Shown one piece after another: positions 1,951 through 53,705 of a DNA stretch of 64,000 bases. Positions within the stretch are counted from its first letter, which is position 1, and each line of letters opens with the position of its first letter. The notes under the pieces were generated by a model. The model saw only the letters and a program-made list of their open reading frames with translations, made no database searches and was not told the DNA's origin. The DNA comes from an uncultured Nitrososphaeraceae archaeon (lineage in GTDB: Archaea > Thermoproteota > Nitrososphaeria > Nitrososphaerales > Nitrososphaeraceae), in contig CAWGVG010000029.1 in assembly GCA_963825865.1 (NCBI GenBank), positions 64,001 through 128,000 of the forward strand. The letters are read 5' to 3'. The position numbers and the translations under genes were made by a program.

Positions 1951-2866
1951 TTCTCTCTCTATCCTCTCTCTTGTTTAAGTACAGCGAAATTCAGCGTGAT
2001 GATCAAATAGTCATGCTGGTCAAAAGTCATTCACCGACTGGTTGATTTTCTAGATTCATCAGTTAAGTTCTTCGTAATTTGTCAAGATTTATTCTTGTTT
2101 TTAATTACAACTGGAATTTGATTCTTTAGATTATATCTAAAATATATTTCCAACATTTTAATAAATTTACATTATAGTATATGAAATCTCTTCATTTTCT
2201 CGTAAGGGTACCTCAGGTTCTTCGAAAATGCAGAATCTAAAGTTAATGTCCAACATCTGAATTTGATGTAGCGCTCGTTTTTAACTGCTCTGCTACTATA
2301 AGGTCCCCTTTCATTTGATATCGATCAGGTTTTCCGGCGTAACTAGGCCACGTTCTCTGTATCCATAGTATACAGATACTCTGCAGAAGAGATCTTAGGC
2401 CTTTATCTGCCATCATATTTTCTTCCTCAATTATGTAGAACCTCAATTATTTTATTTTCATTGGTCCCGAATACCCTCTCTGTTAACGATAAAGTCTGAA
2501 CTAATGTTTTTCATGTGTTCGTATACATCATGTCTCTATAACTATTATAAGAACTCATTTTAGAGTCACCTTACATTTAAGTTTACTTATATTCCTCACC
2601 AAAATGTACAGTTTTAGCTATGCTCCCAGTTCCGCGGCGACTTTATAACTCCGTTCTCTGACATATTCAAAATCACAAAAAGGAGTCTCAGTAACAGCCG
2701 CTTATATTTCTACTCCATGTTTTGCATCATTTTAAAGATGTTATATACTCCAACTTATACCAGAGCCATTGCCTGACTTTGATCGGCAGACAGTCGTCTT
2801 TTTGCACTTATACGCTTAACATGCAAAACCTTGAGTATAATTGTTTATTTGATTTAATCAATTTAA

Positions 2867-3868
2867 TGCTTTGTTGCATGATTAATTATCTTGTAAGTGA
2901 TACTTATTTGACCACTCACCATTTAGCTTGCTAGTATTAATTATTCTGGTATGGTTGACTGGCCTTGCTATAATGAATCACTAGTTAGGCGTGGTCAAGT
3001 ACTCTTGGATTTTGATGTACTTGATGGATGGGATCATGAATTATGTCAAATGAACCTTGGTAAGGTTGGTGAGCCCTACTGCTACCCAAATTCATTTATT
3101 CAGCTTCTAGGTTACATGAGAGCATATTTCCATCTACCATATAGACAAACACAGGGTGTAGTCATAGCTCATGCAAGTAAAGAAGTATCAAACACACCAC
3201 ATTATAATACCATTAATAGACGTATAAACAGGCTAGAGATTAAAATCGATGAAAAATTAGGAAATGATATTGTCATTGCTTTAGACAGCACCGGCATTAA
3301 GGTAGCTAATCGAGGGGAATGGATGCACCACAAATGGCATGTCAGAAAAGGATATCTAAAGATACACATAGCAGTTGATATCGAGAAGAAAAGAATTGTA
3401 TCTCTGGAGGTAACGAGTGAAGAGGTACATGATGGTAAGATGCTAAAGAAGTTAGTAGACAATGCTTCTGAAAATAATAATCATGTGAAGGGTATATTAG
3501 CAGATGGTATGTACGACAGCAATAAGAATTTTAGATACCTATCAAAGAACCACATTAAGCCTGGTATAAAGACAAGAAGTAATTCCAAGGTCAAGTCAAC
3601 TAACTGTCATGCTAGGAATATGTCTGTAGTAAGACAACAGACAAACCTCAAAAAATGGAAGCGTAGCGTGAGCTATGGGTACAGGTGGATAGCAGAAACA
3701 GCATTCTCTTCCATTAAAAGAACATTTGGTGAACATGTAACAGCTAGAAAGTTTCCTCACATGGTAAAAGAGATCCTCCTAAAGGCAGCTCTGTATAACA
3801 TGTTCAATCGAATGACCTAGCTAACGGTTTGCATAACCTAAAATCCTAATGAATTATGCAACAGAGCA
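2867..3868 (+). mobile_element. IS5-family (IS903-like) insertion sequence, copy 1
   Basis: Terminal inverted repeats TGCTTTGTTGCATGATTAATT / TGCTCTGTTGCATAATTCATT (rc); 8-bp TSD CAATTTAA at 2859-2866 and 3869-3876; near-identical copy at 22142..23139. Confidence 0.93.
2951..3820 (+). CDS. IS5-family DDE transposase, intact
   Basis: YNESLVRRG N-terminus; ALDSTGIK, LADGMYD and RWIAETAFSSIKR DDE motifs. Confidence 0.92.
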   Translation: MVDWPCYNESLVRRGQVLLDFDVLDGWDHELCQMNLGKVGEPYCYPNSFIQLLGYMRAYFHLPYRQTQGVVIAHASKEVSNTPHYNTINRRINRLEIKIDEKLGNDIVIALDSTGIKVANRGEWMHHKWHVRKGYLKIHIAVDIEKKRIVSLEVTSEEVHDGKMLKKLVDNASENNNHVKGILADGMYDSNKNFRYLSKNHIKPGIKTRSNSKVKSTNCHARNMSVVRQQTNLKKWKRSVSYGYRWIAETAFSSIKRTFGEHVTARKFPHMVKEILLKAALYNMFNRMT

Positions 3869-16904: not shown

Positions 16905-17526
16905 ATGGATAGGCATCCGCATCAGCAGTTTAAGAGTGATATTGTAAACGCCAGCCTAGTAGTGAATAATCAGCTCACTCGATTAAGGATGCTTGATAAA
17001 AAATTTACTGCAATGGATACTGATTTGCGCCATCAAATGGCTGTTAATATAAAGTCCGGTAACAATGCTCGTGCAAAAGCTTTTGCAAATGAACTATCAA
17101 ACATTCGACGTGTTCAGCGAACTACTCAAAATATGAGCCTTGCACTCGAAGTGGTGGTAATTCGCTTCAGTACCAATTAACGAATTTACAATGATCTTGG
17201 AAACGATCAATCCTACGATTGAAATGATCAAGGATATTCAAAAAGATGTTTCAAAGGCTGTTCCAACGGCTAATGAAGTCTTGTCAGAAATGACGTCAAT
17301 GACATCTGATGTTTTAGTTAATTCTAACATTAGCTCAGACGTAGACAAAATTTCAACTCCTGTGAGTACAGATGCTCTTTCGATATTGAATGAGGTCGAG
17401 GGAATACTTGAAGATGAGGCAAAGGCAAAGCTGCCAGAGGTTCCAACTACTATTCATAGTGTCAAAATGAATCGAGAAACAGAGGAACAAGTAATGGATG
17501 ATAATCGTGTAATGGTTGAAGGTTAA
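16905..17526 (+). CDS. ESCRT-III (CdvB/Snf7-like) protein, frameshifted at ~17178
   Basis: Helical core with ARAKAFANELSNIRR and LALEVVVIRFST; C-terminal EAKAKLPEVP as in archaeal CdvB paralogs. Confidence 0.8.
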
Positions 17527-17631
17527 ACTTGTTAATCTGTTGTTCAACTGCCTGGAGTAGGGCCTATTACACTATTAGTTAAAAATAATATACAAAGTAG
17601 TTTTAATCAGTTGGTCTAAATATGGGGTGCA

Positions 17632-19773
17632 ATGGAACAGTTGAGTCATGATTATTCCTCCCAACCAGAATCTAGGCGAGATGGAGTTTTGGAATCTGCC
17701 TCAAAGCGGGTCAGGATGATTTTTTCTGTTATGGCTAGTCCTAATAGAATTGATATTCTTCGTATTTTAAATTCCAAAGGACCACTTACCTATTCTGAGC
17801 TAAAAGCCCTTGCTGGATTTAAATCTAAAAAAGAATCTGGCAAATTTGCATATCATTTAAGAAAACTTCTCAGGCAGTCGCTTGTTGCTCTTAACAAGGG
17901 AGAGCGCCGTTACACAATTACAAATTTGGGCAAGTTGGTGTTAAGCCTTGCCAGACAGATAGAAGAAAGATCAATAATTGAAAGTGGCAAAATGTATGTT
18001 AGGACAACCAGACATTCAATTGAAGAATTTAACTCACTTAAGATAATTCAATCTCTTGTAAGAGAGGCAAATATGCCACTTGAACAGGCGCATAAAATTA
18101 CTGAAGAAGTTGAAAATAAGATTTACAAATTCCAGACAGCATATCTAACCTCGTCATTGATTAGGGAAACTGTAAATTCTGTTCTAATTGAACACGGACA
18201 TGAAGAATATAGAAACAAGATGGCCAGGTTAGGACTGCCTGCATCTGATGTTGTAGAGATGTTAAATAATATAGATACCGCCAAGAATGGAGTTGACAGT
18301 GTATTGTCAAAAGCTTCTCATTCGATATTTTCAGAATATCTAATAATCAATACACTCCCAAAAGACATTGCAGACATGCACTTGGCTGGTGAGATAAATA
18401 TCTCTAACAGTGGTATGTGGGGTCTGATTCCTGACACTATATTTCTAGACATAGCCGACTTTGCTGAAGATGGCCTTGACCTCAAAGGCAAGTTTTTGAA
18501 TGTCTCTAGGCTACCTACGTTAAATAATTCTGATGACTTTGTAACTATTCTGCCCATACTAATCTCCCTTCTAAGCAGAGAAGCATCGACAGAAATTATA
18601 CTGGAAACAATTATTCCACAGCTGCTAAAACATGAGCAGAAACCAGAGAAAATTGAATCACAATTTACAAGGGCGTTGCTAGCGTCTTCTGTAGCTCCAT
18701 CTTATTCTTTACCAGGTTTCCCGATTACTACAATAAGTCTTCCAGCATATGAATTTGATGCTAAAGTAATCGATGCATTATTAGATGGTTATGGAAAATA
18801 TGTAGATTCCACTCCTGTCCCTAGAATAGGGATATCGTTGAATTATAATAATAATAATGGCAATCTTAAGGATCATTCAGAGCGTATTGCCCCAATAATA
18901 CGTGCTGGCGGCATCATCTCAATTTTACAAAATGGATCAAGGGGAAGCAATGGTACCTGCAAATCTATAGACAGGAAAGGTTTTGGTACTGTTATGACTT
19001 TACAATCATTGTCAATTAATCTTCCAAGACTGGCGTATCAATCGAATAAGGATGAAACCTATTTCCGAGCAAGGCTTGCTCTGATGATAAAGCCGGCACT
19101 AGCCGCAATGTCGATGAGGAAGAAAGGCATTGCAGATCTGATTAGAAAGGGTATGGTTCCGGCACTTGCCAACAGTACCAACTTTATGCAGCTTGTGACG
19201 ACTAACATTTTGATTAACCTCACAGGGGCCAAAGAATCAGTCTATAATATTTTGGGATATGGTGCTAACAACAATGGTATAGAGATTTTACAAAAAGTAT
19301 TGAAGACTGCTGTAGACGTGGCTACAGAACAAGGTAAACACCTTGGAGAAGATTCTGTAGGAATTGCTATGATATGTGATGATAGCGCTGAGAGATTCGC
19401 AAGTCTAGATTCTGATAAATATGGTAAGATCTCTTTATCGTCAACTCAACAAAATACACCTACTTATTCACAAGGACTAATGTTGAATGGCAAAGACTTA
19501 TTGTTATCTGATAATAATTCTAGTTCTGTAATTAAAGAATGTATTTCAATTGACAAATTGTTGAATGGTGGACTATCAGTAATGCTTGATGTGAGCGATC
19601 TTCCTTCTAATATGGAAGTAAAGAACGCAATAGAAGCTGCGTCAGACCTGCAATTTTTTCGCCCTAGCGTCAAACTTATGTTATGTAACACATGTGGTAA
19701 AAGAGCAAGAACACACTCTATTGAAAAGTGCGAATTTTGCAAGTCGCCTTACTTGTCACCAATTCGTTTATAG
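17632..19773 (+). CDS. ArsR-type wHTH + ATP-cone + class III RNR (NrdD)-like domain + Zn ribbon; no glycyl-radical motif
   Basis: SPNRIDILRIL...FAYHLRKL (wHTH); MYVRTTRHSIEEFNSLKIIQSLVREA (ATP cone); IADMHLAGEI and SINLPRLA (NrdD-like); CNTC...CEFC then stop. Confidence 0.85.
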   Translation: MEQLSHDYSSQPESRRDGVLESASKRVRMIFSVMASPNRIDILRILNSKGPLTYSELKALAGFKSKKESGKFAYHLRKLLRQSLVALNKGERRYTITNLGKLVLSLARQIEERSIIESGKMYVRTTRHSIEEFNSLKIIQSLVREANMPLEQAHKITEEVENKIYKFQTAYLTSSLIRETVNSVLIEHGHEEYRNKMARLGLPASDVVEMLNNIDTAKNGVDSVLSKASHSIFSEYLIINTLPKDIADMHLAGEINISNSGMWGLIPDTIFLDIADFAEDGLDLKGKFLNVSRLPTLNNSDDFVTILPILISLLSREASTEIILETIIPQLLKHEQKPEKIESQFTRALLASSVAPSYSLPGFPITTISLPAYEFDAKVIDALLDGYGKYVDSTPVPRIGISLNYNNNNGNLKDHSERIAPIIRAGGIISILQNGSRGSNGTCKSIDRKGFGTVMTLQSLSINLPRLAYQSNKDETYFRARLALMIKPALAAMSMRKKGIADLIRKGMVPALANSTNFMQLVTTNILINLTGAKESVYNILGYGANNNGIEILQKVLKTAVDVATEQGKHLGEDSVGIAMICDDSAERFASLDSDKYGKISLSSTQQNTPTYSQGLMLNGKDLLLSDNNSSSVIKECISIDKLLNGGLSVMLDVSDLPSNMEVKNAIEAASDLQFFRPSVKLMLCNTCGKRARTHSIEKCEFCKSPYLSPIRL

Positions 19774-20393
19774 TTAATAAATAACACCACAGTAGCTAAT
19801 AATTGAATGGCAAAGATTTTGCAATGACCTTAGAGTAGCAGAACTTGTCATAAACCCAGATGTAAAAAAAGATACTAATGGGTTTAAGAAGGATTTTAAA
19901 AGACAGGCCGATCAATTGGCAAGACAGAACTATTCAGAAGAACAACAACCACAACAACAAAAAAACAACAAGCAGATGATGATGATGATGACGACAAGAA
20001 AGCCTTGGCAATAGATATATTCAAACAAAGATGTAATGGAAAAGCAACACAATGATACAACTTCAAATAAAATTAGCTTCCACCAGGCAGATTCTATCAA
20101 GATAACGCACTCCTTATGATGGAAAAATTTGATTAAAGAAGATGTATGATTAAAGAAGAACTAGAATTAAGGTTAAATGAATATACGACTAATATGCTAT
20201 TGTAACGGAACCAATGTTTAAATTTAAAAATTATCTATGCTGGATAATCGATCAATGGCAAAGTCTTTTAGGAGAAGTATGTCTTTTCTACAATTTGAAA
20301 ATAAACATTATTAACAACCGATTGCTCTTTCATGCTCATATCTCCAATGGAACTTCACAAACAATAAACCAGACTGGCAGTAACAATATCGAA

Positions 20394-20640
20394 ATGAAGT
20401 CATGTCCTATTAATAATACATTCAAAATTGTTGGCATAAAATTTACAGTGTTAATTCTAAGAAATATGATAAACGGCAAACAGAATAGCTTTAACCCGTT
20501 ATTAAACCTCCCTTGAAGAAGGTAACCCAAAAACTCTATCTATGAGACTTAGAGAAATGGAAAATTTAGGATTAATAAAACGTAAGGTCTACTCCCATGA
20601 AACACCTATAAGAATAGAATATTATCAGACAGAAAAGACT
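20394..20640 (+). pseudogene. HxlR-family wHTH regulator, disrupted
   Basis: CPINNTFKIVGIKFTVLILRNM, then after a shift NPKTLSMRLREMENLGLIKRKVYSHETPIRIEY. Confidence 0.7.
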
Positions 20641-20982
20641 ATTTCACAACATGTTACAAAAGTAGGTGTAGTGACTATTATCTATAGAGATACCTAAATA
20701 AAATCCTCACTACTAAAACTGTTAAAGAATTTTAATAGACTGAGAATGGAACGAAGCGGTAATTTGACCGATAACCAATAATATTTGTATTTGCAAACAA
20801 TATGGTAATAGAATGGATATCTAATTATCGTAGAGTCCTATCCTGTTGTTAATAATTTATGCACCTTATCTTTTAGCTTGACCACGATCTCAACTAAGAT
20901 CCTGACACCAGAATGGCGATATATCATCTAACGAATAGTGTGGTATGGTTAATTCAAACTTTTTAAAGTCTTGTGACTACAA

Positions 20983-21447
20983 ATGGGTAGGTTGTCTGAT
21001 ACAAAGGGAAAATTTTCCAGAATATTGGTTGCCATCGATGGCTCAGCTCCATCAATGGATGCAGCAGACTATGCTATAGAAATGGCAAAAAAGAATAATG
21101 CTCAGCTAATTGCGTTAACTGTCTCACGTATTTCGTTATCAGCATATGGTCTTGTACCGTCCCCAGATGCATTAACGCGGGCGAAAGAAAGACATAAACT
21201 TGAAGCTGAGCAATGGTTTAATAAATTTAATCAAAGCGCAAAACAAAAGAATGTTCAATTAAAAACAGAACTCATTGATAGTCAAATGACTATTGAAGCG
21301 GCAATAGTGGAATACGCCGATCGTGAAGGTGTTGATTTGATAATATTAGGTACAAGGGGAAGGTCGGGTTTTAAAAGGCTGCTGGTTGGAAGTGTTGCAT
21401 CAGGGGTAGTAACTTATGCAACATGTCCTGTAATGGTAGTGAAATAA
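20983..21447 (+). CDS. universal stress protein (UspA family)
   Basis: RILVAIDGS; DLIILGTRGRSGFKRLLVGSVA; CPVMVVK. Confidence 0.92.
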   Translation: MGRLSDTKGKFSRILVAIDGSAPSMDAADYAIEMAKKNNAQLIALTVSRISLSAYGLVPSPDALTRAKERHKLEAEQWFNKFNQSAKQKNVQLKTELIDSQMTIEAAIVEYADREGVDLIILGTRGRSGFKRLLVGSVASGVVTYATCPVMVVK

Positions 21448-21650
21448 GTATTATGCAAGCCTCTTCCAATTATGATTACACACACTACCAGTAATCACTC
21501 AATCTCTGTTTATATAATGCAAAGAAAAATATTTTATCCTTCAAACAACATCCAACAGGCAGAAAAGAATGAATATGATGTATGCCTGTCAACTTCACAA
21601 CTGAAAACAAAACAACATTTTATGTAATTGCAAGATAATACTAGATAGTT

Positions 21651-23835
21651 GACGATTGGACATAAATCCAGACTCTATTTTTTGCAAATATATATTGATG
21701 AATTAGGCTAAAGCTATCCTTTGGATGTCTGAATTTGTGATGACATATAATAAAACATCCTCAAAGGACAGCACATGATAGTTCAGAATCCATCCTTATT
21801 GGTATTCTGTATTTGATAGGCTTGATACCATGGCCAGAATCACAAAAGATGAAAAAAAGAGGTAGACCATACGTCTATTCTTCTACTGTCATACTACGAT
21901 GTTTCATAGTCAGATTGTGGTTTAGAATGGATTCTAACAACGCATTACATGAATTCCTAGGAATGGATTACCCTTACAATAAGAAGATAATGAAAAGATG
22001 TGGTCTTACCCAAATACCAGATAGACGAACATTTGACAGACGTCTTAAGACCATATCCATAGACATCAAGGAAAGGATTGCTACTATGACTAGTCTATTA
22101 GTAAATGGGAAGATAATAGACCCTTATATTGTTGCAATAGATGCTTTGTTGCATGATTAATTATCTTGTAAGTGATACTTATTTGACCACTCACCATTTA
22201 GCTTGCTAGTATTAATTATTCTGGTATGGTTGACTGGCCTTGCTATAATGAATCACTAGTTAGGCGTGGTCAAGTACTCTTGGATTTTGATGTACTTGAT
22301 GGATGGGATCATGAATTATGTCAAATGAACCTTGGTAAGGTTGGTGAGCCCTACTGCTACCCAAATTCATTTATTCAGCTTCTAGGTTACATGAGAGCAT
22401 ATTTCCATCTACCATATAGACAAACACAGGGTGTAGTCATAGCTCATGCAAGTAAAGAAGTATCAAACACACCACATTATAGGACCATTAATAGACGTAT
22501 AAACAGGCTAGAGATTAAAATCGATGAAAAATTAGGAAATGATATTGTCATTGCTTTAGACAGCACCGGCATTAAGGTAGTAATCGAGGGGAATGGATGC
22601 ACCACAAATGGCATGTCAGAAAAGGATATCTAAAGATACACATAGCAGTTGATATCGAGAAGAAAAGAATTGTATCTCTGGAGGTAACAAGTGAAGAGGT
22701 ACATGATGGTAAGATGCTAAAGAAGTTAGTAGACAATGCTTCTGAAAATAATAATCTGAAGGGTATATTAGCAGATGGTATGTACGACAGCAATAAGAAT
22801 TTTAGATACCTATCAAAGAACCACATTAAGCCTGGTATAAAGACAAGAAGTAATTCCAAGGTCAAGTCAACTAACTGTCATGCTAGGAATATGTCTGTAG
22901 TAAGACAACAAGCAAACCTCAAAAAATGGAAGCGTAGCGTGAGCTATGGGTACAGGTGGATAGCAGAAACAGCATTCTCTTCCATTAAAAGAACATTTGG
23001 TGAACATGTAACAGCTAGAAAGTTTCCTCACATGGTAAAAGAGATCCTCCTAAAGGGAGCTCTGTATAACATGTTCAATCGAATGACCTAGCTAACGGTT
23101 TGCATAACCTAAAATCCTAATGAATTATGCAACAGAGGAGCAATAGATAGTACATTGCTCAAAGCCAGAGGACATGTTTGGCACAAATCATCTATGGATA
23201 AAGGAATAGTACCACGTTCAGGTATAGATACAGATGCCAGGTGGGGATTCAGTCATACCAGAGGTTGGATATTTGGTTACAAACTACATTTGATATCAAG
23301 ACTGGTTCTACCATAGTACCTTTAGCAGCAGATTTTACAACTGCTAATGTACAGGATAATCAAATGTACAATCCTATGATATCATCATCATCATCATCTC
23401 TGTTCCTAGAAACATGTTTCATGATAGGTGATTCTGGGTATGACGACAATAAACTATATGATTTAGCATAAACAGAGGATTTGAACTGGTATGTCCAGTG
23501 CAAAGGTACAAAAATACCCCAAAGAATAGACTAGAGCTGATACAATTCTATGAATCTGAGTTAGGACAGGCTATTTACTCTTGGAGAAGTAAATCGATAG
23601 AACCACTAATAGAACATATTAAATCTGTTTTTAGAATAGACCCATTACCGGTAAGAGGCTATCAGAAGGCTGCTGGAATAGTACTTCTGTCAGTACTACT
23701 GTATCAGATCCTTGTCTACTACAATTATAAAACCAGACCTAGTCAACGACCAAAAGCAATCAAACACATGTTATGTAGTTAATACATCACTAAATGATAG
23801 ATGAAAAATGTAGAATTGAATTATGCCCATGTCTC
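21651..23835 (+). mobile_element. DDE IS (IS4/IS5/IS982-like), copy A1, interrupted by a nested IS5
   Basis: Ends GACGATTGGACATAA / GAGACATGGGCATAA (rc) shared with the copy at 52227..53407; transposase motifs VAIDST, GYKLH, GDSGYD, IEPLIEHIK. Confidence 0.9.
22142..23139 (+). mobile_element. IS5-family (IS903-like) IS, copy 2, nested in IS A1
   Basis: Near-identical to 2867..3868; 8-bp TSD GCAATAGA at 22134-22141 and 23140-23147, inside the A1 codons for V-A-I-D. Confidence 0.93.
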
Positions 23836-24399
23836 AGCTACCTTCCTTTTTGATTTTCTTCCTCCAGGATTAATTCTTATGGCAATTGTTCCTAAATGAT
23901 TCTCTTCTCCAAAAATATCTTCCATCAACAGCCACAACCGCGGCATTTCATAATCATCTATAGTTACACAAATTATTCCATCTTCACTTAGTAAATTTTT
24001 GGCTAATCCGAGTCTGTGGTTCATAAATGAAAGCCATTTTGTATGTCGGTAAGGATCTTCAGCATCTACATAATTATTGTTGTATTTCCAGTCTTTTGCT
24101 CCTGTGTTATAGGGAGGATCAAGATAAATTACATCGATTTTTCCTTTATGCGTGTAATTCAAAACAGAAAGAGCATGGTAATTATCGCCCTCTATCAAGA
24201 TATTTACAGGCTTTTCCTTGTCTGTCATTATTTCTTTACTTTTAACTTCTTCTAATATTGGCAATTTTGTCTTACACTGTTCAACTACCTCTTCCTGCTT
24301 ATCTTCCCAAACCAATCCAAATTTTTTCCTTTTTTTTAGTTTCTTTATCTCTTGGATAAGGTCATTTTTAGAAAAATCGTCATAATTATTAACGATCAT
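23836..24399 (-). pseudogene. mod: type III R-M methyltransferase (Mod-like), 5' part, cut by IS A1
   Basis: KKFGLVWE, NILIEGDNYHAL, IYLDPPYNTG, HTKWLSFM; ends at GRKSKRKVA at the IS boundary. Confidence 0.85.
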
Positions 24400-47706: not shown

Positions 47707-48645
47707 ATGTCTAACAACCATCTATACAATCGCGATATAATCTCAATCAAGGATTTCAGCAAGCAAGATCTCGAATTCGTTTTCTATTCGACAGATATAA
47801 TTAGCAGTCTGAGACCAAATGAAAAGAGTGAACTTGGCAAAGGCAGGACTCTAGGTTATATCTTCTATGAGCCAAGCACTAGGACCAGAATGAGTTTTGA
47901 ATCAGCTATGGCATCATTAGGTGGAAGCTCTATTGGAATCTTTGATCCCAAATCTTCTTCGATTGAAAAAGGTGAGAGTCTTGCTGATACTATTCGAATA
48001 ATAGATCTTTATTCTGATGTTATTGTTTTACGACATCCGCTTGATGGTTCAAGCAGGTTTGCTGGTGAATTATCAAAGAATCCAATAATCAATGCAGGTA
48101 GTGGAAGTGAAGAACATCCTACACAAGCGATGCTTGATCTTTATACTATAATCAAAGAGAAAAAAAAAATTGACGGGCTTACAATAGGCATTGTTGGAGA
48201 TCTAAAGTACGGCAGAACAGTCTATTCATTATTATATGGTTTGGCAAATTATAATGTAGATATTCATCTAATATCACCATCTATATTATGTATTAGAAAA
48301 GAATCGATCTATGACGTACGAAACAATCTGAAAATATATGAACATAGTCAGCTTGATGACGATATTTTGTCTAAACTTGATATAATTTATGTTACAAGAA
48401 TACAAAGAGAGCGTTTTCCCGATATACAAGAGTATGAAAAAGTAAAGGGTACGTATACTATCGATATGAATACTCTGGCAAAAGCAAAACCAGATGTCTC
48501 CATAATGCATCCAATGCCTAGAACAGAAGAAATTTCACATTCTATCGATGGTACAAAGAATGCAATTTATTTTAAGCAGGCCGCATACGGTAAGGAATTG
48601 AGAGCAGCTCTTCTTGCCTTAGTGTTAAACGAAAATCCGATCTAA
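47707..48645 (+). CDS. pyrB: aspartate carbamoyltransferase catalytic subunit
   Basis: FYEPSTRTRMSF, HPTQAMLD, GDLKYGRTV, TRIQRERF, HPMPR. Confidence 0.95.
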   Translation: MSNNHLYNRDIISIKDFSKQDLEFVFYSTDIISSLRPNEKSELGKGRTLGYIFYEPSTRTRMSFESAMASLGGSSIGIFDPKSSSIEKGESLADTIRIIDLYSDVIVLRHPLDGSSRFAGELSKNPIINAGSGSEEHPTQAMLDLYTIIKEKKKIDGLTIGIVGDLKYGRTVYSLLYGLANYNVDIHLISPSILCIRKESIYDVRNNLKIYEHSQLDDDILSKLDIIYVTRIQRERFPDIQEYEKVKGTYTIDMNTLAKAKPDVSIMHPMPRTEEISHSIDGTKNAIYFKQAAYGKELRAALLALVLNENPI

Positions 48646-48781: not shown

Positions 48782-51502
48782 TTAGCCCGAGGCGCAAGTA
48801 CTAAAGCCGCATTCAATGCACATATTGCATCCTTCAGTGATTATTAATTTTGCTTTGCATGATGGACAGATTTCATCTTCATTTAGTTCAGTTTGGGGAG
48901 CTTGCATTGTCTTCTTTGTAGTGCCAGTTTGTTCTACAGTTAAGACGCTTCCAATGGCTTCACGCTGGATTTCTGTTTCCTTAAAGATTTTTTCTATTTG
49001 TTCTCGGACATATGGCTCTGTAACGTTTGCATATACATAATCAATGACATATCTGCTTGGTCTTACAATGAATCTCTTTTCCTCTTTATTATTACCAGTA
49101 ATGTGCAGGACTTGCTCATGTCTTGAGCCGTCTCTATATACTGTGACTCCCTTTAAACCGAACTCATGCGATAGCAGATATGCACACTTCACATCTTCTG
49201 CAGTTACATCTCCGGGCATGTTGATTGTCTTTGCAATCGCATTACTGATCCACTTCTGCCATACTGCTTGGGCCATCAGATGGTCAGTCCAATGTATGTC
49301 GATTGCAGTAACAAAGGTTTTCTGAATCCATTCTGGAATTTCAGTTAGCCCACGTACTGAACCGTAGTTGTTTGCAATCTTGGTCAGTATTTCATCGTTG
49401 TATAAACCGTTTTCCTTTAATACATTTTCGAAAATCTTATCGGTATAAAAGAATCTCCCAACTGTTACACGTTTTTCGAAAACTAATGCAAAGATGGGTT
49501 CAACACCATTTGAGGTATCTGCAATCATAGACAATGTACCTGTGGGAGCAATTGTTGATGTCCAAGAGTTTCTGACCCCATGTTTTTGGATCTTTTCAAT
49601 TAGCGAATCCCAATCATATGCATGCATTTCTTTTGGTAAATCATAGTATCCTGCAATTGGAATCTTGCCCTTAACATAATCTGTCTCTTTGAACAGAGGA
49701 AATGGACCTCTTGCCTTTGCAATAGCAACACTTTCCTCTATACTGTAGTATGACATTGCTTCTGCAAGTTTATCCATGAAATCATAGCCATCATTAGAGT
49801 TATATGGGATCCTCAATAAGAACAGCAAATCCGCAATACCCATTATACCAAGACCAATTCTTCTTGTCAGTTTTGTGTTGATATCTATCTCTTCTACAGG
49901 ATACTTGTTCATATCAATTATATTGTCCAAGAATCGCGATGAGAGTCTAATTGCCTGCTCGTATCTTTGCCAATCGAATTCATACATTCCATCTGCCTTA
50001 CGCTTTACAAAATTTGCAAGGTTGATTGAACCTAGGTTACATGATTCATATGGGTATAGTGATTGCTCACCACATGGGTTCGTTGCACGTAATGGTCCAC
50101 CCTTTGCATTGACACATGGGTTGTATTTGTTGATGTTGTCAAAGAAAATAACACCAGGTTCAGCGCTCTTCCAAGCACTTAATGCAATCAAATCCATTAA
50201 CTGATGTGAATCGATTTGTTTTATAAGATCCCTAGTTCTAGGATTGCGCAATGCATACTTTTGGTTGTCCTTATTTACAAGGGATTGCCAAAAATCTTCC
50301 CAGACACCAACGCTGACATTAAAGTTCTCAAACACGCCAGGCTTTGTCTTGGCAGTTATGAATTTTTCAATATCTGGATGCCATGCTTCTAGAATACCCA
50401 TATTTGCTCCACGTCTTTTTCCACCTTGCTTCACTACATCGGTAACGACATCAATGATCCTCATAAACGAGGTTGGACCCGATGCAACACCAGAAGTTGA
50501 GGCAACAATGTCGCCTTCTGGTCTCAGGTCAGAATAATTTATTCCGACTCCTCCACCTGATTTGAATATCATGGCTGCGTCGGTAGATGATTTCATGATT
50601 TTGTACATATCATCCTGCATATCAAGAACGAAGCATGCTGACAATTGACCAAGCTTTGCGCCAGCATTCATCAATGTTGGTGTGTTTGGAAGGAAGTCCT
50701 TTGATACCATCAAATTATAATATTCTTTAATCCTTTCTTCGTACATTGCTAACTTGCCTTCAGCCATGAATCTAAGTAGTTCCTTAAAGCTGACTTTCAT
50801 CTGTCCATGTTTTGCGAGGTAAATATAATGTCGAATCAAAGATTCAAAATGATACTTGTTCAGATAATAGTCATTGATCTTTAACTTTAGATCAAAGTCA
50901 TCAACTTTGGCATAATATTTTTCTGCTTCTTCAATATTTTGAATATGCCCACCTGCTAAATTGAACAATCGTGAATCGTGTATAATATCTGGAATTGCTA
51001 CTAGAATTGCAACTCTTTCGAACATCAGTTTTGGACCTTCAATAATTTCGTTATTGCTATCCCGTAGTAGATAACGTGCTGCTAATACCCTAAGCGAATT
51101 AACATCAAGCGCCTTGTCTACTTCATCAAGGTCTTTCTTGTTTAGAATCTTCATCTTATCGTCACGAACTTTGCGTCGCTCATGTCTATACAGAATGTAA
51201 GACTTCGCGGTTTCAGACAAACCTTCTTCAATGAGTATAGATTCTACTATATCCTGTACATCTTCAACGCTTGGAATGGCATCTTTTTCAGTCGAGTCGT
51301 AACCCTGATGAATTATCTTCTGCACGACCTTATTTGCCAGTCTTTCAGCCAACGGATAATCTGGTTTGCTGGTTGCTACAAGTGCCTTATAGATTGCATC
51401 TGATATCTTGGAGTGCACAAAATCGACTATTCTTCCATCTCTTTTTCGTATGTGTACAATCAAACTCTCTTTCGATTTGTTAAACTCAGTAACTCTAGCC
51501 AT
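48782..51502 (-). CDS. nrdJ: class II (adenosylcobalamin) ribonucleotide reductase with N-terminal ATP cone
   Basis: IRKRDGRIV cone; PNTPTLMN, QLSACFV, GGKRRGANM, TNPCGEQ, ESCNLGS, IAPTGT; C-terminal CPSC...CIEC. Confidence 0.93.
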   Translation of the reverse strand: MARVTEFNKSKESLIVHIRKRDGRIVDFVHSKISDAIYKALVATSKPDYPLAERLANKVVQKIIHQGYDSTEKDAIPSVEDVQDIVESILIEEGLSETAKSYILYRHERRKVRDDKMKILNKKDLDEVDKALDVNSLRVLAARYLLRDSNNEIIEGPKLMFERVAILVAIPDIIHDSRLFNLAGGHIQNIEEAEKYYAKVDDFDLKLKINDYYLNKYHFESLIRHYIYLAKHGQMKVSFKELLRFMAEGKLAMYEERIKEYYNLMVSKDFLPNTPTLMNAGAKLGQLSACFVLDMQDDMYKIMKSSTDAAMIFKSGGGVGINYSDLRPEGDIVASTSGVASGPTSFMRIIDVVTDVVKQGGKRRGANMGILEAWHPDIEKFITAKTKPGVFENFNVSVGVWEDFWQSLVNKDNQKYALRNPRTRDLIKQIDSHQLMDLIALSAWKSAEPGVIFFDNINKYNPCVNAKGGPLRATNPCGEQSLYPYESCNLGSINLANFVKRKADGMYEFDWQRYEQAIRLSSRFLDNIIDMNKYPVEEIDINTKLTRRIGLGIMGIADLLFLLRIPYNSNDGYDFMDKLAEAMSYYSIEESVAIAKARGPFPLFKETDYVKGKIPIAGYYDLPKEMHAYDWDSLIEKIQKHGVRNSWTSTIAPTGTLSMIADTSNGVEPIFALVFEKRVTVGRFFYTDKIFENVLKENGLYNDEILTKIANNYGSVRGLTEIPEWIQKTFVTAIDIHWTDHLMAQAVWQKWISNAIAKTINMPGDVTAEDVKCAYLLSHEFGLKGVTVYRDGSRHEQVLHITGNNKEEKRFIVRPSRYVIDYVYANVTEPYVREQIEKIFKETEIQREAIGSVLTVEQTGTTKKTMQAPQTELNEDEICPSCKAKLIITEGCNMCIECGFSTCASG

Positions 51503-51807
51503 CCCGTATATACAAAAAAAATGTTAGTTTAAAAGCATTACCTAATTAAAAGATAATACTTCACAGGTGTAAATGAAGCCGCTTACTTAACATAAACTGA
51601 TTTTAATTATATTGTACTAAAGAAAAATTGCGGTAATAGATTTAATATCCAACATTTAGTCCATTTATGTGGGATATTATTCAAATGATAATGTTTTATT
51701 TCCTCAAAATTAAGCTATTTTACACCATCACATTAAATACTTTTCACAATATGGGAGGATTATATTGCCAGTGTAATTTCATCCATAACTAGTCTTTGGA
51801 ATGTCCT

Positions 51808-51940
51808 TAGAAGAATGTTGGAATACATCAAAGAATGATCTTCTCATTTGCAGATACTATCAGTCATTTGCTGATTTTACAAACCAAATTAGTGAGTACT
51901 TCAGAACTAAAACCTCCAACTTAACATATGAAAATTGGCA
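51808..51940 (+). pseudogene. IS630-like transposase C-terminal relic
   Basis: EECWNTSKNDLLICRYYQSFADFTNQISEYFRTK. Confidence 0.5.
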
Positions 51941-52226
51941 TGCATTATGTTCATTGAATTGAGCAGCAACTCATGTTTGATCAACTGTCTGAATATCATT
52001 TTAATGTTGACAAGTCTTGGTTGAGATCATTAAATTTACTGTATATTTTTGTCCGAAGAATATCCAAGAGTATTATCATTCCCACTAGTGAATTCGGTTC
52101 TGACTTCTGTTTAATACTCTCAGAAGATTGTCCCAAAACATTCTCAAATTATGATATAAGATCATTTAAGCTTTTGAAGAGATGTGTTTGCTTGGCTGAA
52201 GTGACTGTTCATTTCCTTAACTATCT

Positions 52227-53407
52227 GAGACATGGGCATAATTCATTTCTATATTTTTTATCTATCATTTAGTGCTGCATTAACTACATAACATGTGTTT
52301 GATTGATTTTGGTCGTTGACTAGGTCTGGTTTTATAATTGTAGTAGACAAGGATTTGATACAGTAGTACTGACAGAAGTACTATTCCAGCAGCCTTCTGA
52401 TAGCCTCTTACCTGTAATGGGTCTATTCTAAAAATAGATTTAATATGTTCTATTAGTGGTTCTATCGATTTACTTCTCCAAGAGTAAATAGCCTGTCCTA
52501 ACTCAGATTCATAGAATTGTATCAGCTCTAGTCTATTCTTTGGGGTATTTTTGTACCTTTGTACTGGACATACCAGTTCAAATCCTCTTTTAGTACCTCA
52601 AATCATATAGTTTATTGTCGTCATACCCAGAATCACCTATCATGAAACATGTTTCTAGGAACAGAGATGATGATGATGATGATATCATAGGATTGTACAT
52701 TTGATTATCCTGTACATTAGCAGTTGTAAAATCTGCTCCTAAAGGTACTATGGTAGAACCAGTACTTGATATCAAATGTAGTTTGTAACCAAATATCCAA
52801 CCTCTGGTATGACTGAATCCCCACCTGGCATCTGTATCTATACCTGAACGTGGTACTATTCCTTTATCCATAGATGATTTGTGCCAAACATGTCCTCTGG
52901 CTTTGAGCAATGTACTATCTATTGCAACAATATAAGGGTCTATTATCTTCCCATTTACTAATAGACTAGTCATAGTAGCAATCCTTTCCTTGATGTCTAT
53001 GGATATGGTCTTAAGACGTCTGTCAAATGTTCGTCTATCTGGTATTTGGGTAAGACCACATCTTTTCATTATCTTCTTATTGTAAGGGTAATCCATTCCT
53101 AGGAATTCATGTAATGCGTTGTTAGAATCCATTCTAAACCACAATCTGACTATGAAACATCGTAGTATGACAGTAGAAGAATAGACGTATGGTCTACCTC
53201 TTTTTTTCATCTTTTGTGATTCTGGCCATGGTATCAAGCCTATCAAATACAGAATACCAATAAGGATGGATTCTGAACTATCATGTGCTGTCCTTTGAGG
53301 ATGTTTTATTATATGTCATCACAAATTCAGACATCCAAAGGATAGCTTTAGCCTAATTCATCAATATATATTTGCAAAAAATAGAGCTGGATTTATGTCC
53401 AATCGTC
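52227..53407 (-). mobile_element. DDE IS copy A2, inverted relative to A1, no nested IS
   Basis: Highly similar to 21651..23835 minus the nested IS5; transposase ~52285..53246 with a frameshift near 52595. Confidence 0.9.
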
Positions 53408-53705
53408 AGGTAGCTGCACAACACGAATATGCCTTATTTTTTTCGAGGTCACCATCAGCAAAAGTTGCCCAAATTTCTATAGCACCAGATAAAAAAACTC
53501 ACATCTACAAACCAGATGAGAATGGTAAATGGTTTGAGGAACGTAATCTTAGAAAAGAGGGAGCCGATAGCTTTGCTAGTACAGACTCAAAAAGATACTA
53601 TCCAATTTATTATGATCCAAAAACAGACAAATTAAGCACAAACACCAAGTATCAAATTGAAATTCTACCGATTGATACCCGTGGTCAAAAGAGGATATGG
53701 AGAAC
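53408..53705 (+). pseudogene. mod: type III Mod continuation (middle part)
   Basis: VAAQHEYALFF...NLRKEG...YYPIYY...RGQKRIWR continues the 23836..24399 reading across TSD AGGTAGCT. Confidence 0.8.

Follow-up and report, generated by a model that had tools for sequence, protein, structure and literature searches.

Introduction

Among the systems described so far for the transcriptional control of ribonucleotide reductase (RNR) genes, NrdR occupies a particular position as an RNR-specific bacterial repressor made of a Zn ribbon linked to an ATP-cone. According to the available text of PMC11226230, the ATP-cone is essentially restricted to RNRs and NrdR; as far as the available text of PMC9110341 goes, NrdR is rare in archaea, and the control of archaeal RNR genes is for this reason largely open. 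Another type of regulator is exemplified by PurR from Bacillus and GfcR from Haloferax, two transcription factors which, in the available text of PMC10838023, consist of a helix-turn-helix (HTH) and an inactive phosphoribosyltransferase domain. The present report deals with a gene, hereafter named reg, located at positions 17632..19773 of a 64-kb window (the whole stretch of DNA analysed, i.e., positions 64,001 to 128,000 of contig CAWGVG010000029.1, assembly GCA_963825865.1) from an uncultured archaeon of the family Nitrososphaeraceae, whose genome is 82% complete. The reg protein associates a winged helix-turn-helix (wHTH), an ATP-cone and the body of a class III RNR (NrdD) devoid of catalytic residues, and would be, with a probability of about 0.6, a transcription regulator that stems from an RNR and acts on RNR genes, i.e., a functional analogue of the bacterial NrdR.

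The NrdR model TIGR00244 finds no match in this genome and matches only one of the 151 genomes surveyed in the class Nitrososphaeria, at a place other than reg, so that NrdR is not available for the control of RNR in these organisms. No description of a fusion between a wHTH, an ATP-cone and a dead NrdD was found in searches of the main text of openly accessible articles.

Domain organization and fold of the reg protein

The reg gene and the successive parts of its product are distributed along the window as follows:

17632..19773, + strand: reg, an intact open reading frame (ORF) of 713 residues encoding the wHTH, ATP-cone and dead NrdD-like protein
17713..17979, + strand: winged helix-turn-helix, residues 28-116 (HTH_20 and DUF7347 above the Pfam cut-offs)
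17992..18246, + strand: ATP-cone, residues 121-205 (Pfam match 121-193; PF03477, 44.4 bits)
18247..19683, + strand: NrdD-like barrel core, residues 206-684, without catalytic residues (hhalign)
18430..18444, + strand: PDTIF, residues 267-271, with Thr269 at the Cys position of E. coli 'fnCml' (hhalign)
18931..18966, + strand: finger-loop remnant NGSRGSNGTCKS, residues 434-445, with Ser436 at the thiyl-Cys position (hhalign and alignment)
19012..19035, + strand: SINLPRLA, residues 461-468, a retained NrdD core motif aligned to E. coli 'slnlpria'
19684..19740, + strand: Zn ribbon C685/C688/C700/C703, with no Gly-radical loop after it (sequence motifs)

The Pfam domains recognized in the reg protein comprise HTH_20 at residues 34-86 (32.7 bits vs. 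a cut-off of 27), DUF7347 at residues 30-104 (39.6 vs. 27.6), the ATP-cone at residues 121-193 (cut-off 25.8) and NRDD at residues 447-705 (58.5 vs. 26.2), the latter restricted to positions 269-529 of the 562 positions of the profile. Along the polypeptide chain, the motifs MYVRTT (121-126), ADMHLAGEINISN (247-259), SINLPRLA, CNTC (685-688) and CEFC (700-703) succeed one another, and CEFC is followed by the ten residues KSPYLSPIRL and a stop codon. All the elements quoted in a first-pass annotation of the window, namely the wHTH, the ATP-cone, the NrdD body, the CxxC-CxxC ribbon and the stop ten residues further on, are thus found at their place. The same annotation expected the homologues to be called anaerobic RNR, and the name 'anaerobic ribonucleoside-triphosphate reductase' does occur among their source names, alongside 'ArsR family regulator'.

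The 120 best database homologues of the reg protein (708-748 residues) possess the identical set of four Pfam domains. In an alignment of 35 homologues, with identities of 30-95% to the reg protein, both CxxC pairs are present in 29, with the C-terminus located 8-19 residues past the second pair; the Zn ribbon is wholly gone in five others, and P0163 retains the first CxxC only. Owing to this common length and domain set, the short C-terminus of the reg protein does not result from an assembly error, and the RxxGY loop, whose lack was pointed out in the first-pass annotation, is indeed missing from it.

The AlphaFold2 (AF2) model of the reg protein, built from the 35 homologues with a mean predicted local distance difference test (pLDDT) of 83.3 and a predicted template modelling score (pTM) of 0.73, shows a wHTH made of three helices followed by a β-hairpin. 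A Foldseek search of the PDB with this model lists exclusively class III RNRs at ranks 1-35, 9dca being the best match (E 7.5e-19) and T4 NrdD (1hk8) reaching a target-normalised template modelling (TM) score of 0.69, and the first class I RNR comes at rank 37. Aligned by hhalign with the E. coli NrdD (sequence from NC_000913.3), the reg family profile gives a probability of 98.8 over 459 columns, between residues 226-695 of the query and 132-671 of the 712 residues of the template, and the alignment ends at the Zn ribbon; against the NrdDs of the PDB, the same profile yields an E-value of 5e-14. Asn463 of the SINLPRLA motif is invariant in the 35 aligned homologues and Leu464-Pro465-Arg466 are nearly so. 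According to the model, the fold of the reg protein is that of NrdD, with the ten-stranded α/β barrel of the RNR/glycyl-radical-enzyme type.

Loss of the catalytic residues

The residues that carry the radical chemistry of NrdD are replaced or missing in the reg protein. In the hhalign alignment, the E. coli stretch 'mgCRSFLG' faces 'G-SRGSNG' of the reg protein, with Ser436 in place of the Cys, and 'fnCml' faces 'PDTIF', with Thr269 in place of the Cys that we take to be the second active-site, catalytic cysteine of the E. coli enzyme. No conserved Cys occurs in the finger-loop region throughout the alignment of 35 homologues: C443, in the stretch SNGTCKS, is located 7 residues beyond the thiyl-Cys position and is kept in the closest relatives only, and the homologue P0133 retains R-RSFLG in its finger loop. 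The first-pass claim that no canonical finger loop exists, only SNGTCKS, has to be corrected in this respect, since the loop is recognisable by hhalign and bears Ser436 at the thiyl-Cys site. At the other end of the barrel, the Gly-radical end of the Pfam NRDD profile has no counterpart in the reg protein.

The scores obtained with the NCBIfam equivalogs point in the same direction: the reg protein reaches 40.8 bits with the NrdD equivalog TIGR02487, vs. a cut-off of 326.35, and falls far short of five other NrdD equivalogs too. The activase NrdG (TIGR02491), which the first-pass annotation described as absent near reg, is above its cut-off in none of the 151 class genomes (best score 45.2 bits vs. 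126.1); no match above the cut-off exists in the 82% complete genome under study (best 35.3 bits), and none lies near reg. The weak NrdG matches, at 25-45 bits, mostly correspond to a radical-SAM ORF of ~240-250 residues located elsewhere. The reg protein therefore has neither the Gly-radical tail nor the two cysteines, and no activase goes with it, in agreement with the notion of a pseudo-enzyme put forward in the first-pass annotation; to judge from its sequence, the reg protein is almost certainly not an active RNR.

Distribution and conservation

A reg match occurs in 127 of the 151 class genomes, including 108 of the 110 high-quality ones, and in 59 of the 61 genomes of the family Nitrososphaeraceae; at the level of the phylum, 142 of 201 genomes possess one. 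The gene is thus near-universal in ammonia-oxidising archaea and present in many other Thermoproteota. Depending on the domain, the mean pairwise identity over the 35 homologues amounts to 0.64 for the wHTH, 0.59 for the ATP-cone and 0.21-0.35 for the segments of the core. The wHTH contains a near-invariant stretch, GFKSKKESGKFAYHLRKL at residues 62-79, and all 35 aligned homologues retain the motif (D/E/H)(S/A)G(K/R)F(A/V/G/S)YHL(R/K), as do those N-termini, 8 among 20, that extend to it; a version of this motif recurs in distant forms of 740-780 residues, one of which bears a Bathyarchaeota source name. The reg gene is under selection and not decaying. It is probably expressed, RNA contigs from four libraries of four studies covering it at ≥95% identity, with possible DNA carry-over. 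The uncovered stretches of the window (e.g., 20114-20487) and the contig ends near 19932, beside a skipped repeat, were discarded as evidence.

Two other observations concern the surroundings of reg and its copies. Upstream of reg, two small ORFs of 91 and 111 residues (16905-17526), for which no Pfam family was found, correspond to a single ORF of 208-209 residues in the relatives; base 17173 is missing from the contigs of three RNA runs, and its loss joins the two ORFs into one of 206 residues, so that the split at 17173 represents either a strain frameshift or an assembly error. In a Nitrosopumilaceae genome (G008:C1:1091142-1091393, - strand), a fragment 89% identical to residues 20-103, i.e., to the wHTH, and interrupted by two stop codons, is located ~6 kb from the intact reg and looks like the pseudogene remnant of a duplication.

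Linkage to ribonucleotide reductase genes

Two ATP-cones only occur in the genome, one in the reg protein and the other in the NrdJ protein, whose gene belongs to the same window together with a pyrB-like neighbour:

48782..51502, - strand: nrdJ-type RNR of 906 residues that bears an ATP-cone and is presumed to be the target of reg (Ribonuc_red_lgC 502 bits, ATP-cone 68.7 bits)
47707..48645, + strand: aspartate/ornithine carbamoyltransferase-family gene (pyrB-like), convergent with nrdJ and part of a conserved reg-RNR-OTCace neighbourhood (Pfam; same order in relatives)

The linkage between reg and nrdJ suspected in the first-pass annotation is borne out at the level of the class: in 90 of 127 genomes no more than 1 kb separates the two genes, 80 with a tandem reg-nrdJ arrangement, 9 with a convergent one (families f4 and f12) and one with a divergent one, the non-adjacent class being possibly overcounted because 32 weaker nrdJ matches are unlisted. 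Without the unpublished genome G132, which also enters the NrdG and NrdR counts, the proportion becomes 89 of 126. In the family Nitrososphaeraceae, the tandem arrangement occurs in 35 of 59 genomes and a single genome lacks a match to the N-terminal part of nrdJ. Another unpublished genome, G181, contributes one genome to the family counts and one row to the promoter alignment, and all the claims stand without G132 and G181. As an observation apart, in one genome of the family the match to the N-terminal part of nrdJ (G186:C20:20240-21014) contains three TGA and one TAA stops, and may correspond to a broken nrdJ or to a poor assembly.

The partner of the wHTH forms is not always nrdJ. Fifteen loci were taken from other families of the phylum, four being picked for an adjacency that was already visible and eleven by score. 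In four of these loci, the wHTH form is directly followed by a full-length NrdD (406-527 bits), which the NRDD profile covers from position 1 to 560-562 in three cases and to 517 in L109; in one more locus the next gene encodes a weaker NrdD-like protein without the Gly, and in another one a class I/II-type large subunit. The intact NrdD neighbours exhibit a CCRL-type finger, seen in two of four, and a 'WSRITGYY..GWN.GK' tail in three of four. The wHTH forms exhibit a G(T/L/S)RL finger, and their tail is a vestige devoid of the Gly, e.g., 'YSRSSAKYLPLQWW'; this tail is wholly deleted in the forms from Nitrososphaeria. DUF7347 matches 13 of the 15 wHTH forms at E≤1e-5, 12 of them above the cut-off, and finds no match in L117. 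The cone subtype (VRTS, VRGT, VKVS) is common to reg and to the intact archaeal NrdDs that adjoin wHTH forms. Beside the wHTH form of L106, a second NrdD-like gene (L106:1677-3584, - strand; 635 residues, NRDD 255 bits) has no wHTH; its tail, SRSIAFY, is devoid of Gly, and it is maybe another dead paralogue.

Inversion within the window

In the closest relatives, whose reg protein is 81-82% identical to that of the window, the gene order agrees with that of the window over the stretch between the thiolase genes and reg, after which come nrdJ and the pyrB-like gene. The match of the window to these relatives is interrupted after the stop codon of reg (19773) and starts again in inverted orientation at 51575. 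Two copies of an insertion sequence (IS) delimit the inverted segment:

21650..23840, no strand assigned: IS copy A (DDE_Tnp_1), left end of the inverted segment (window self-blastn and Pfam)
52222..53408, no strand assigned: IS copy B, inverted with respect to copy A, right end of the inverted segment (window self-blastn)

Copy A consists of 21650-22142 and 23140-23840, which are 97-99.8% identical to copy B, and is interrupted at 22141-23137 by a 1-kb IS, 99% identical to 2866-3866. The ~28-kb segment 23841-52221 between the two copies holds both nrdJ and the pyrB-like gene. Recombination between the two inverted IS copies has moved nrdJ ~29 kb off, to the opposite strand, and at such a place any control by reg would have to occur in trans. 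The inversion proposed in the first-pass annotation thus agrees with the inverted IS copies that flank the nrdJ segment and with the tandem reg-nrdJ arrangement of the relatives; three details differ: the distance from reg to nrdJ once the inversion is undone amounts to ~4.8 kb by the positions of the IS copies and not to ~2.6 kb, the flanking IS, for which an IS630 relic had been given, belongs to the DDE_Tnp_1 type by Pfam, and the ORF 20214-20516, called an HxlR relic, has no Pfam hit at E≤0.001. The stretches 19774-21650, which contains a USP gene, and 51576-52221 find no match in the reg-nrdJ intergenic region of the relatives or in the parts of their contigs that were compared.

Promoters and candidate operator

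Both promoter regions contain parts that are conserved among relatives:

17539..17630, + strand: reg promoter region; within the family ~90 bp are conserved, and a TTTTAAT box occupies 17601-17607 (promoter hidden Markov model, HMM)
51503..51583, - strand: nrdJ promoter region, whose part common to the closest relatives ends at 51575 (comparison with relatives)
51566..51573, + strand: GGTGTAAA box, a candidate half-operator 71 nt 5' of nrdJ, inverted relative to nrdJ (motif scan)

The HMM built from 29 reg promoters of the family recognizes the reg promoter of the window as its sole match in the genome (E 1.5e-21). In the same family, the nrdJ promoter consensus, ..ttncacc..atTATTtTTtanttagatAAtgcTTTTAA.., is conserved with or without an adjacent reg. 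A [GT]TGT[CA]AA box occurs within 150 nt 5' of nrdJ in 21 of 40 genomes, vs. 5.5 expected from shuffles, these genomes being related and the counts accordingly not independent. In Nitrosopumilaceae, the nrdJ box takes the form GTGTCAA-N5-TTGA at -88 to -98, ~30-50 nt 5' of a TTTATA-like box, and the box is present in all 6 genomes of f4 and f12. GTGTCAA boxes also occur in the intergenic region of two of the five loci where a wHTH form lies beside nrdD, including 'GTGTCAATATTTTT'. The GTGTCAA-type box is a candidate operator. Its place 5' of the TATA in Nitrosopumilaceae would suggest activation, and that beside the TATA in Nitrososphaeraceae may suggest repression.

Two other candidates were rejected. 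The sequence GGTGTAAAATAGC, at -227 of the window nrdJ, was considered as a box of the Nitrosopumilaceae type; it is absent in the relatives and copied from element-like loci. The enrichment in 6-mers found 5' of reg stems for the most part from the end of the preceding gene, whose coding sequence is conserved there.

Some side observations deal with the same regions. The 305 bp located directly 5' of nrdJ (51510-51814) are 94% and 91% identical to C29:9774-10078 and C24:17494-17752 of the same genome (G000), the relatives sharing only the first ~73 bp of this upstream region with the window. Both copies lie upstream of pairs of small VapB-like and AbrB-like genes, and that of C29 is then followed by a split MCM helicase gene and looks like part of an integrated element; either such elements carry an nrdJ-like promoter, or recombination has taken place at the nrdJ promoter. 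In L030, L031 and L032, from f4 and f12, the 150 nt 5' of reg resemble, by eye, a tRNA gene in its 3' portion (..GGTTCAAATCC..CCA).

Proposed role of the reg protein

The simplest history for the wHTH forms, since they share the same VRTS-like cone subtype with the intact archaeal NrdDs, is the duplication of an archaeal NrdD possessing its own N-terminal cone, one copy of which would have gained an N-terminal wHTH and lost the radical chemistry. The resulting protein would most likely bind promoter DNA through its wHTH, probably as an NrdD-type dimer, and would control, by activation or by repression, the transcription of the working RNR gene of the cell, presumably nrdJ in the present case. 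The ATP-cone, and perhaps the dead barrel too, would constitute the nucleotide-responsive module, and bound nucleotides would alter the DNA binding or the oligomeric state of the protein, as they do in NrdR.

Several results weigh against this proposal. With respect to gene order, reg and nrdJ are 12.6-461 kb apart on one contig in 6 of the 59 family genomes, including that of the window, and reside on different contigs in 17 others; no reg-nrdJ adjacency was found in families f7, f8 and f9 of the class survey, and in family f5 nrdJ occurs in all 14 genomes and reg in none. The adjacency of reg to RNR genes could also reflect in part an old synteny, since genes for thiolase, HMG-CoA reductase and OTCace are repeatedly found in the vicinity. 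With respect to the operator, none was found within the family that the promoters of reg and nrdJ have in common: the two HMMs miss each other's promoter and the consensus sequences overlap in the AT-rich TATA region only. The [GT]TGT[CA]AA box is found 5' of reg in 9 of the 40 genomes vs. 5.1 expected, the window nrdJ has the inverted half-box only, and in a genome-wide scan of 5 Nitrosopumilaceae genomes GTGTMAANNNNNTTGA gave 27 hits vs. 18 for the control and is not enriched; the sole other recurrent site of GTGTMAANNNNNTTGA falls in the coding end of a small gene, with no sign of a regulon.

With respect to the ligand, the reg cone has a T-T pair (VRTT) where the cones of E. coli NrdD and of the window NrdJ have Lys-Arg, and with such a cone the sensing of ATP or dATP by the reg protein is something we infer. 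An NxN flap over the NrdD substrate is named in the available text of PMC11226230; of the four intact archaeal NrdDs in the alignment, three possess the corresponding ENAN, which is missing in the window protein and in the three aligned wHTH forms. Taking into account the T-T cone and the missing flap, the ligand binding of the reg protein may differ or be lost. The core is in addition the least conserved, fast-evolving part of the protein. As for the origin of the family, a quick tree of 29 rows (23 wHTH cores, 5 archaeal NrdD-type neighbours without wHTH, one of them without Gly, and E. coli NrdD), which contains many long branches and a skewed composition, did not settle the wHTH forms into one clade, and their origin may be single or multiple.

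Four other explanations have been considered. A functional class III RNR, which the naming in many databases would make of the reg protein, agrees with the name 'anaerobic ribonucleoside-triphosphate reductase' and with the NrdD fold; the lack of a Gly-radical loop and of a thiyl Cys, the complete absence of NrdG above its cut-off from the class genomes and the scores widely below those of the NCBIfam equivalogs refute it on sequence grounds and leave it with hardly any probability. A moonlighting, so-called trigger enzyme, performing a non-radical nucleotide reaction in a remodelled barrel in addition to binding DNA, would account for the survival of several pocket-lining NrdD motifs and for the Zn ribbon of most members. 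However, neither a conserved Cys nor a new catalytic set is evident in a core of 21-35% identity, the ribbon is lost in five of the 35 homologues and halved in a sixth, and the NxN flap is gone, which makes such an enzyme quite improbable.

Rather unlikely too, though less so, is an action at the protein level, in which the dead subunit would bind or sequester nucleotides, or act as a partner of NrdJ or of replication proteins, with the wHTH serving as a non-specific DNA tether or for protein contacts. The retention of a ~480-residue NrdD body with conserved NLPR, RF..LD and YSQG motifs, which exceeds the needs of a simple ligand switch, and the lack of a convincing operator in the family speak for it, whereas the wHTH is the most conserved domain and the motif of its recognition helix is nearly invariant, as expected for a specific target on a nucleic acid, and both HTH_20 and DUF7347 are above their Pfam cut-offs. 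The reg protein could, lastly, be a transcription factor devoted mainly to other nucleotide or lipid-precursor genes (pyrB-like OTCace, amino-acid-kinase and mevalonate-pathway genes), its closeness to RNR genes being an inherited gene order. OTCace genes adjoin wHTH forms in 6 of the 15 loci (L106, L107, L110, L115, L119 and L120) and AA_kinase genes in 3, a thiolase with ChsH2-OB is located near wHTH forms in 2 of them and in the window, the order reg-nrdJ-pyrB-like is found in the relatives, and reg and nrdJ are unlinked in several lineages. The recurrent pyrB-like and amino-acid-kinase neighbours may delineate a wider nucleotide-metabolism neighbourhood or regulon. Yet the partner gene switches from one RNR class to another by lineage (nrdJ, nrdD, class I/II-type) and is always an RNR, the reg protein itself derives from an RNR, and a conserved box occurs 5' of RNR genes; a role centred on the other genes is, on balance, unlikely.

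The preferred reading thus remains that of an RNR-derived regulator of RNR genes. A more ambitious version of it, to be regarded as speculative and on the whole doubtful, would make the reg protein a phylum-wide archaeal switch for the supply of deoxyribonucleoside triphosphates (dNTPs), in which the wHTH reads the GTGTCAA-type box, and the cone, the specificity site at the dimer interface and the substrate pocket read several nucleotide pools. If this were true, reg would sense more than NrdR does and would be the RNR regulator so far missing in Thermoproteota, and integrated MCM-bearing elements of this genome possessing a copy of the nrdJ promoter might use the same signal.

Comparison with known systems

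The reg protein shares with NrdD the fold and the succession of a cone, a core and a Zn ribbon, and the NLPR, RF..LD and GG motifs are kept in its family; it differs from NrdD by the lack of the Gly-radical loop, of both cysteines, of the NxN flap and of an activase, and by the extra wHTH. In metabolic reconstructions, the database name 'anaerobic ribonucleoside-triphosphate reductase' wrongly implies that these aerobes synthesize dNTPs anaerobically.

By its wHTH, above the HTH_20 cut-off and with weak sequence matches to ArsR, MarR and SmtB proteins of the PDB (E 0.15-1.5), the reg protein bears a partial resemblance to the ArsR/SmtB and MarR regulators. The ArsR-type models themselves stay below their cut-offs (HTH_5, 12.3 bits vs. 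22; metalloregulator NF033788, 23.6 vs. 55) and, unlike that of ArsR/SmtB, the effector module is an entirely different one.

The resemblance to PurR and GfcR is of another kind. As depicted in the available text of PMC10838023, such metabolite-binding regulators arose from a duplicated pathway enzyme that lost its activity and received an HTH at its N-terminus, a course similar to that proposed for reg. The enzyme family is however unrelated, and the DNA binding and ligands of PurR and GfcR are experimental, whereas those of the reg protein are predicted.

NrdR would be the functional analogue: both proteins combine a DNA-binding domain with an ATP-cone, both are associated with RNR genes, and the reg protein, like NrdR, would couple the nucleotide pools to RNR transcription. 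In contrast to NrdR, the reg protein possesses an ArsR/MarR-like wHTH instead of an N-terminal Zn ribbon, its sole Zn ribbon being C-terminal and of the NrdD type; it is ~5 times larger, with a whole dead NrdD barrel and no match to TIGR00244; no tandem 16-bp NrdR boxes were seen, and its cone is devoid of the Lys-Arg pair. Outside the cone, the reg protein is not a homologue of NrdR. If the proposed role is true, the reg family would represent a third home of the ATP-cone, besides RNRs and NrdR, and the first transcription factor derived from the catalytic subunit of an RNR.

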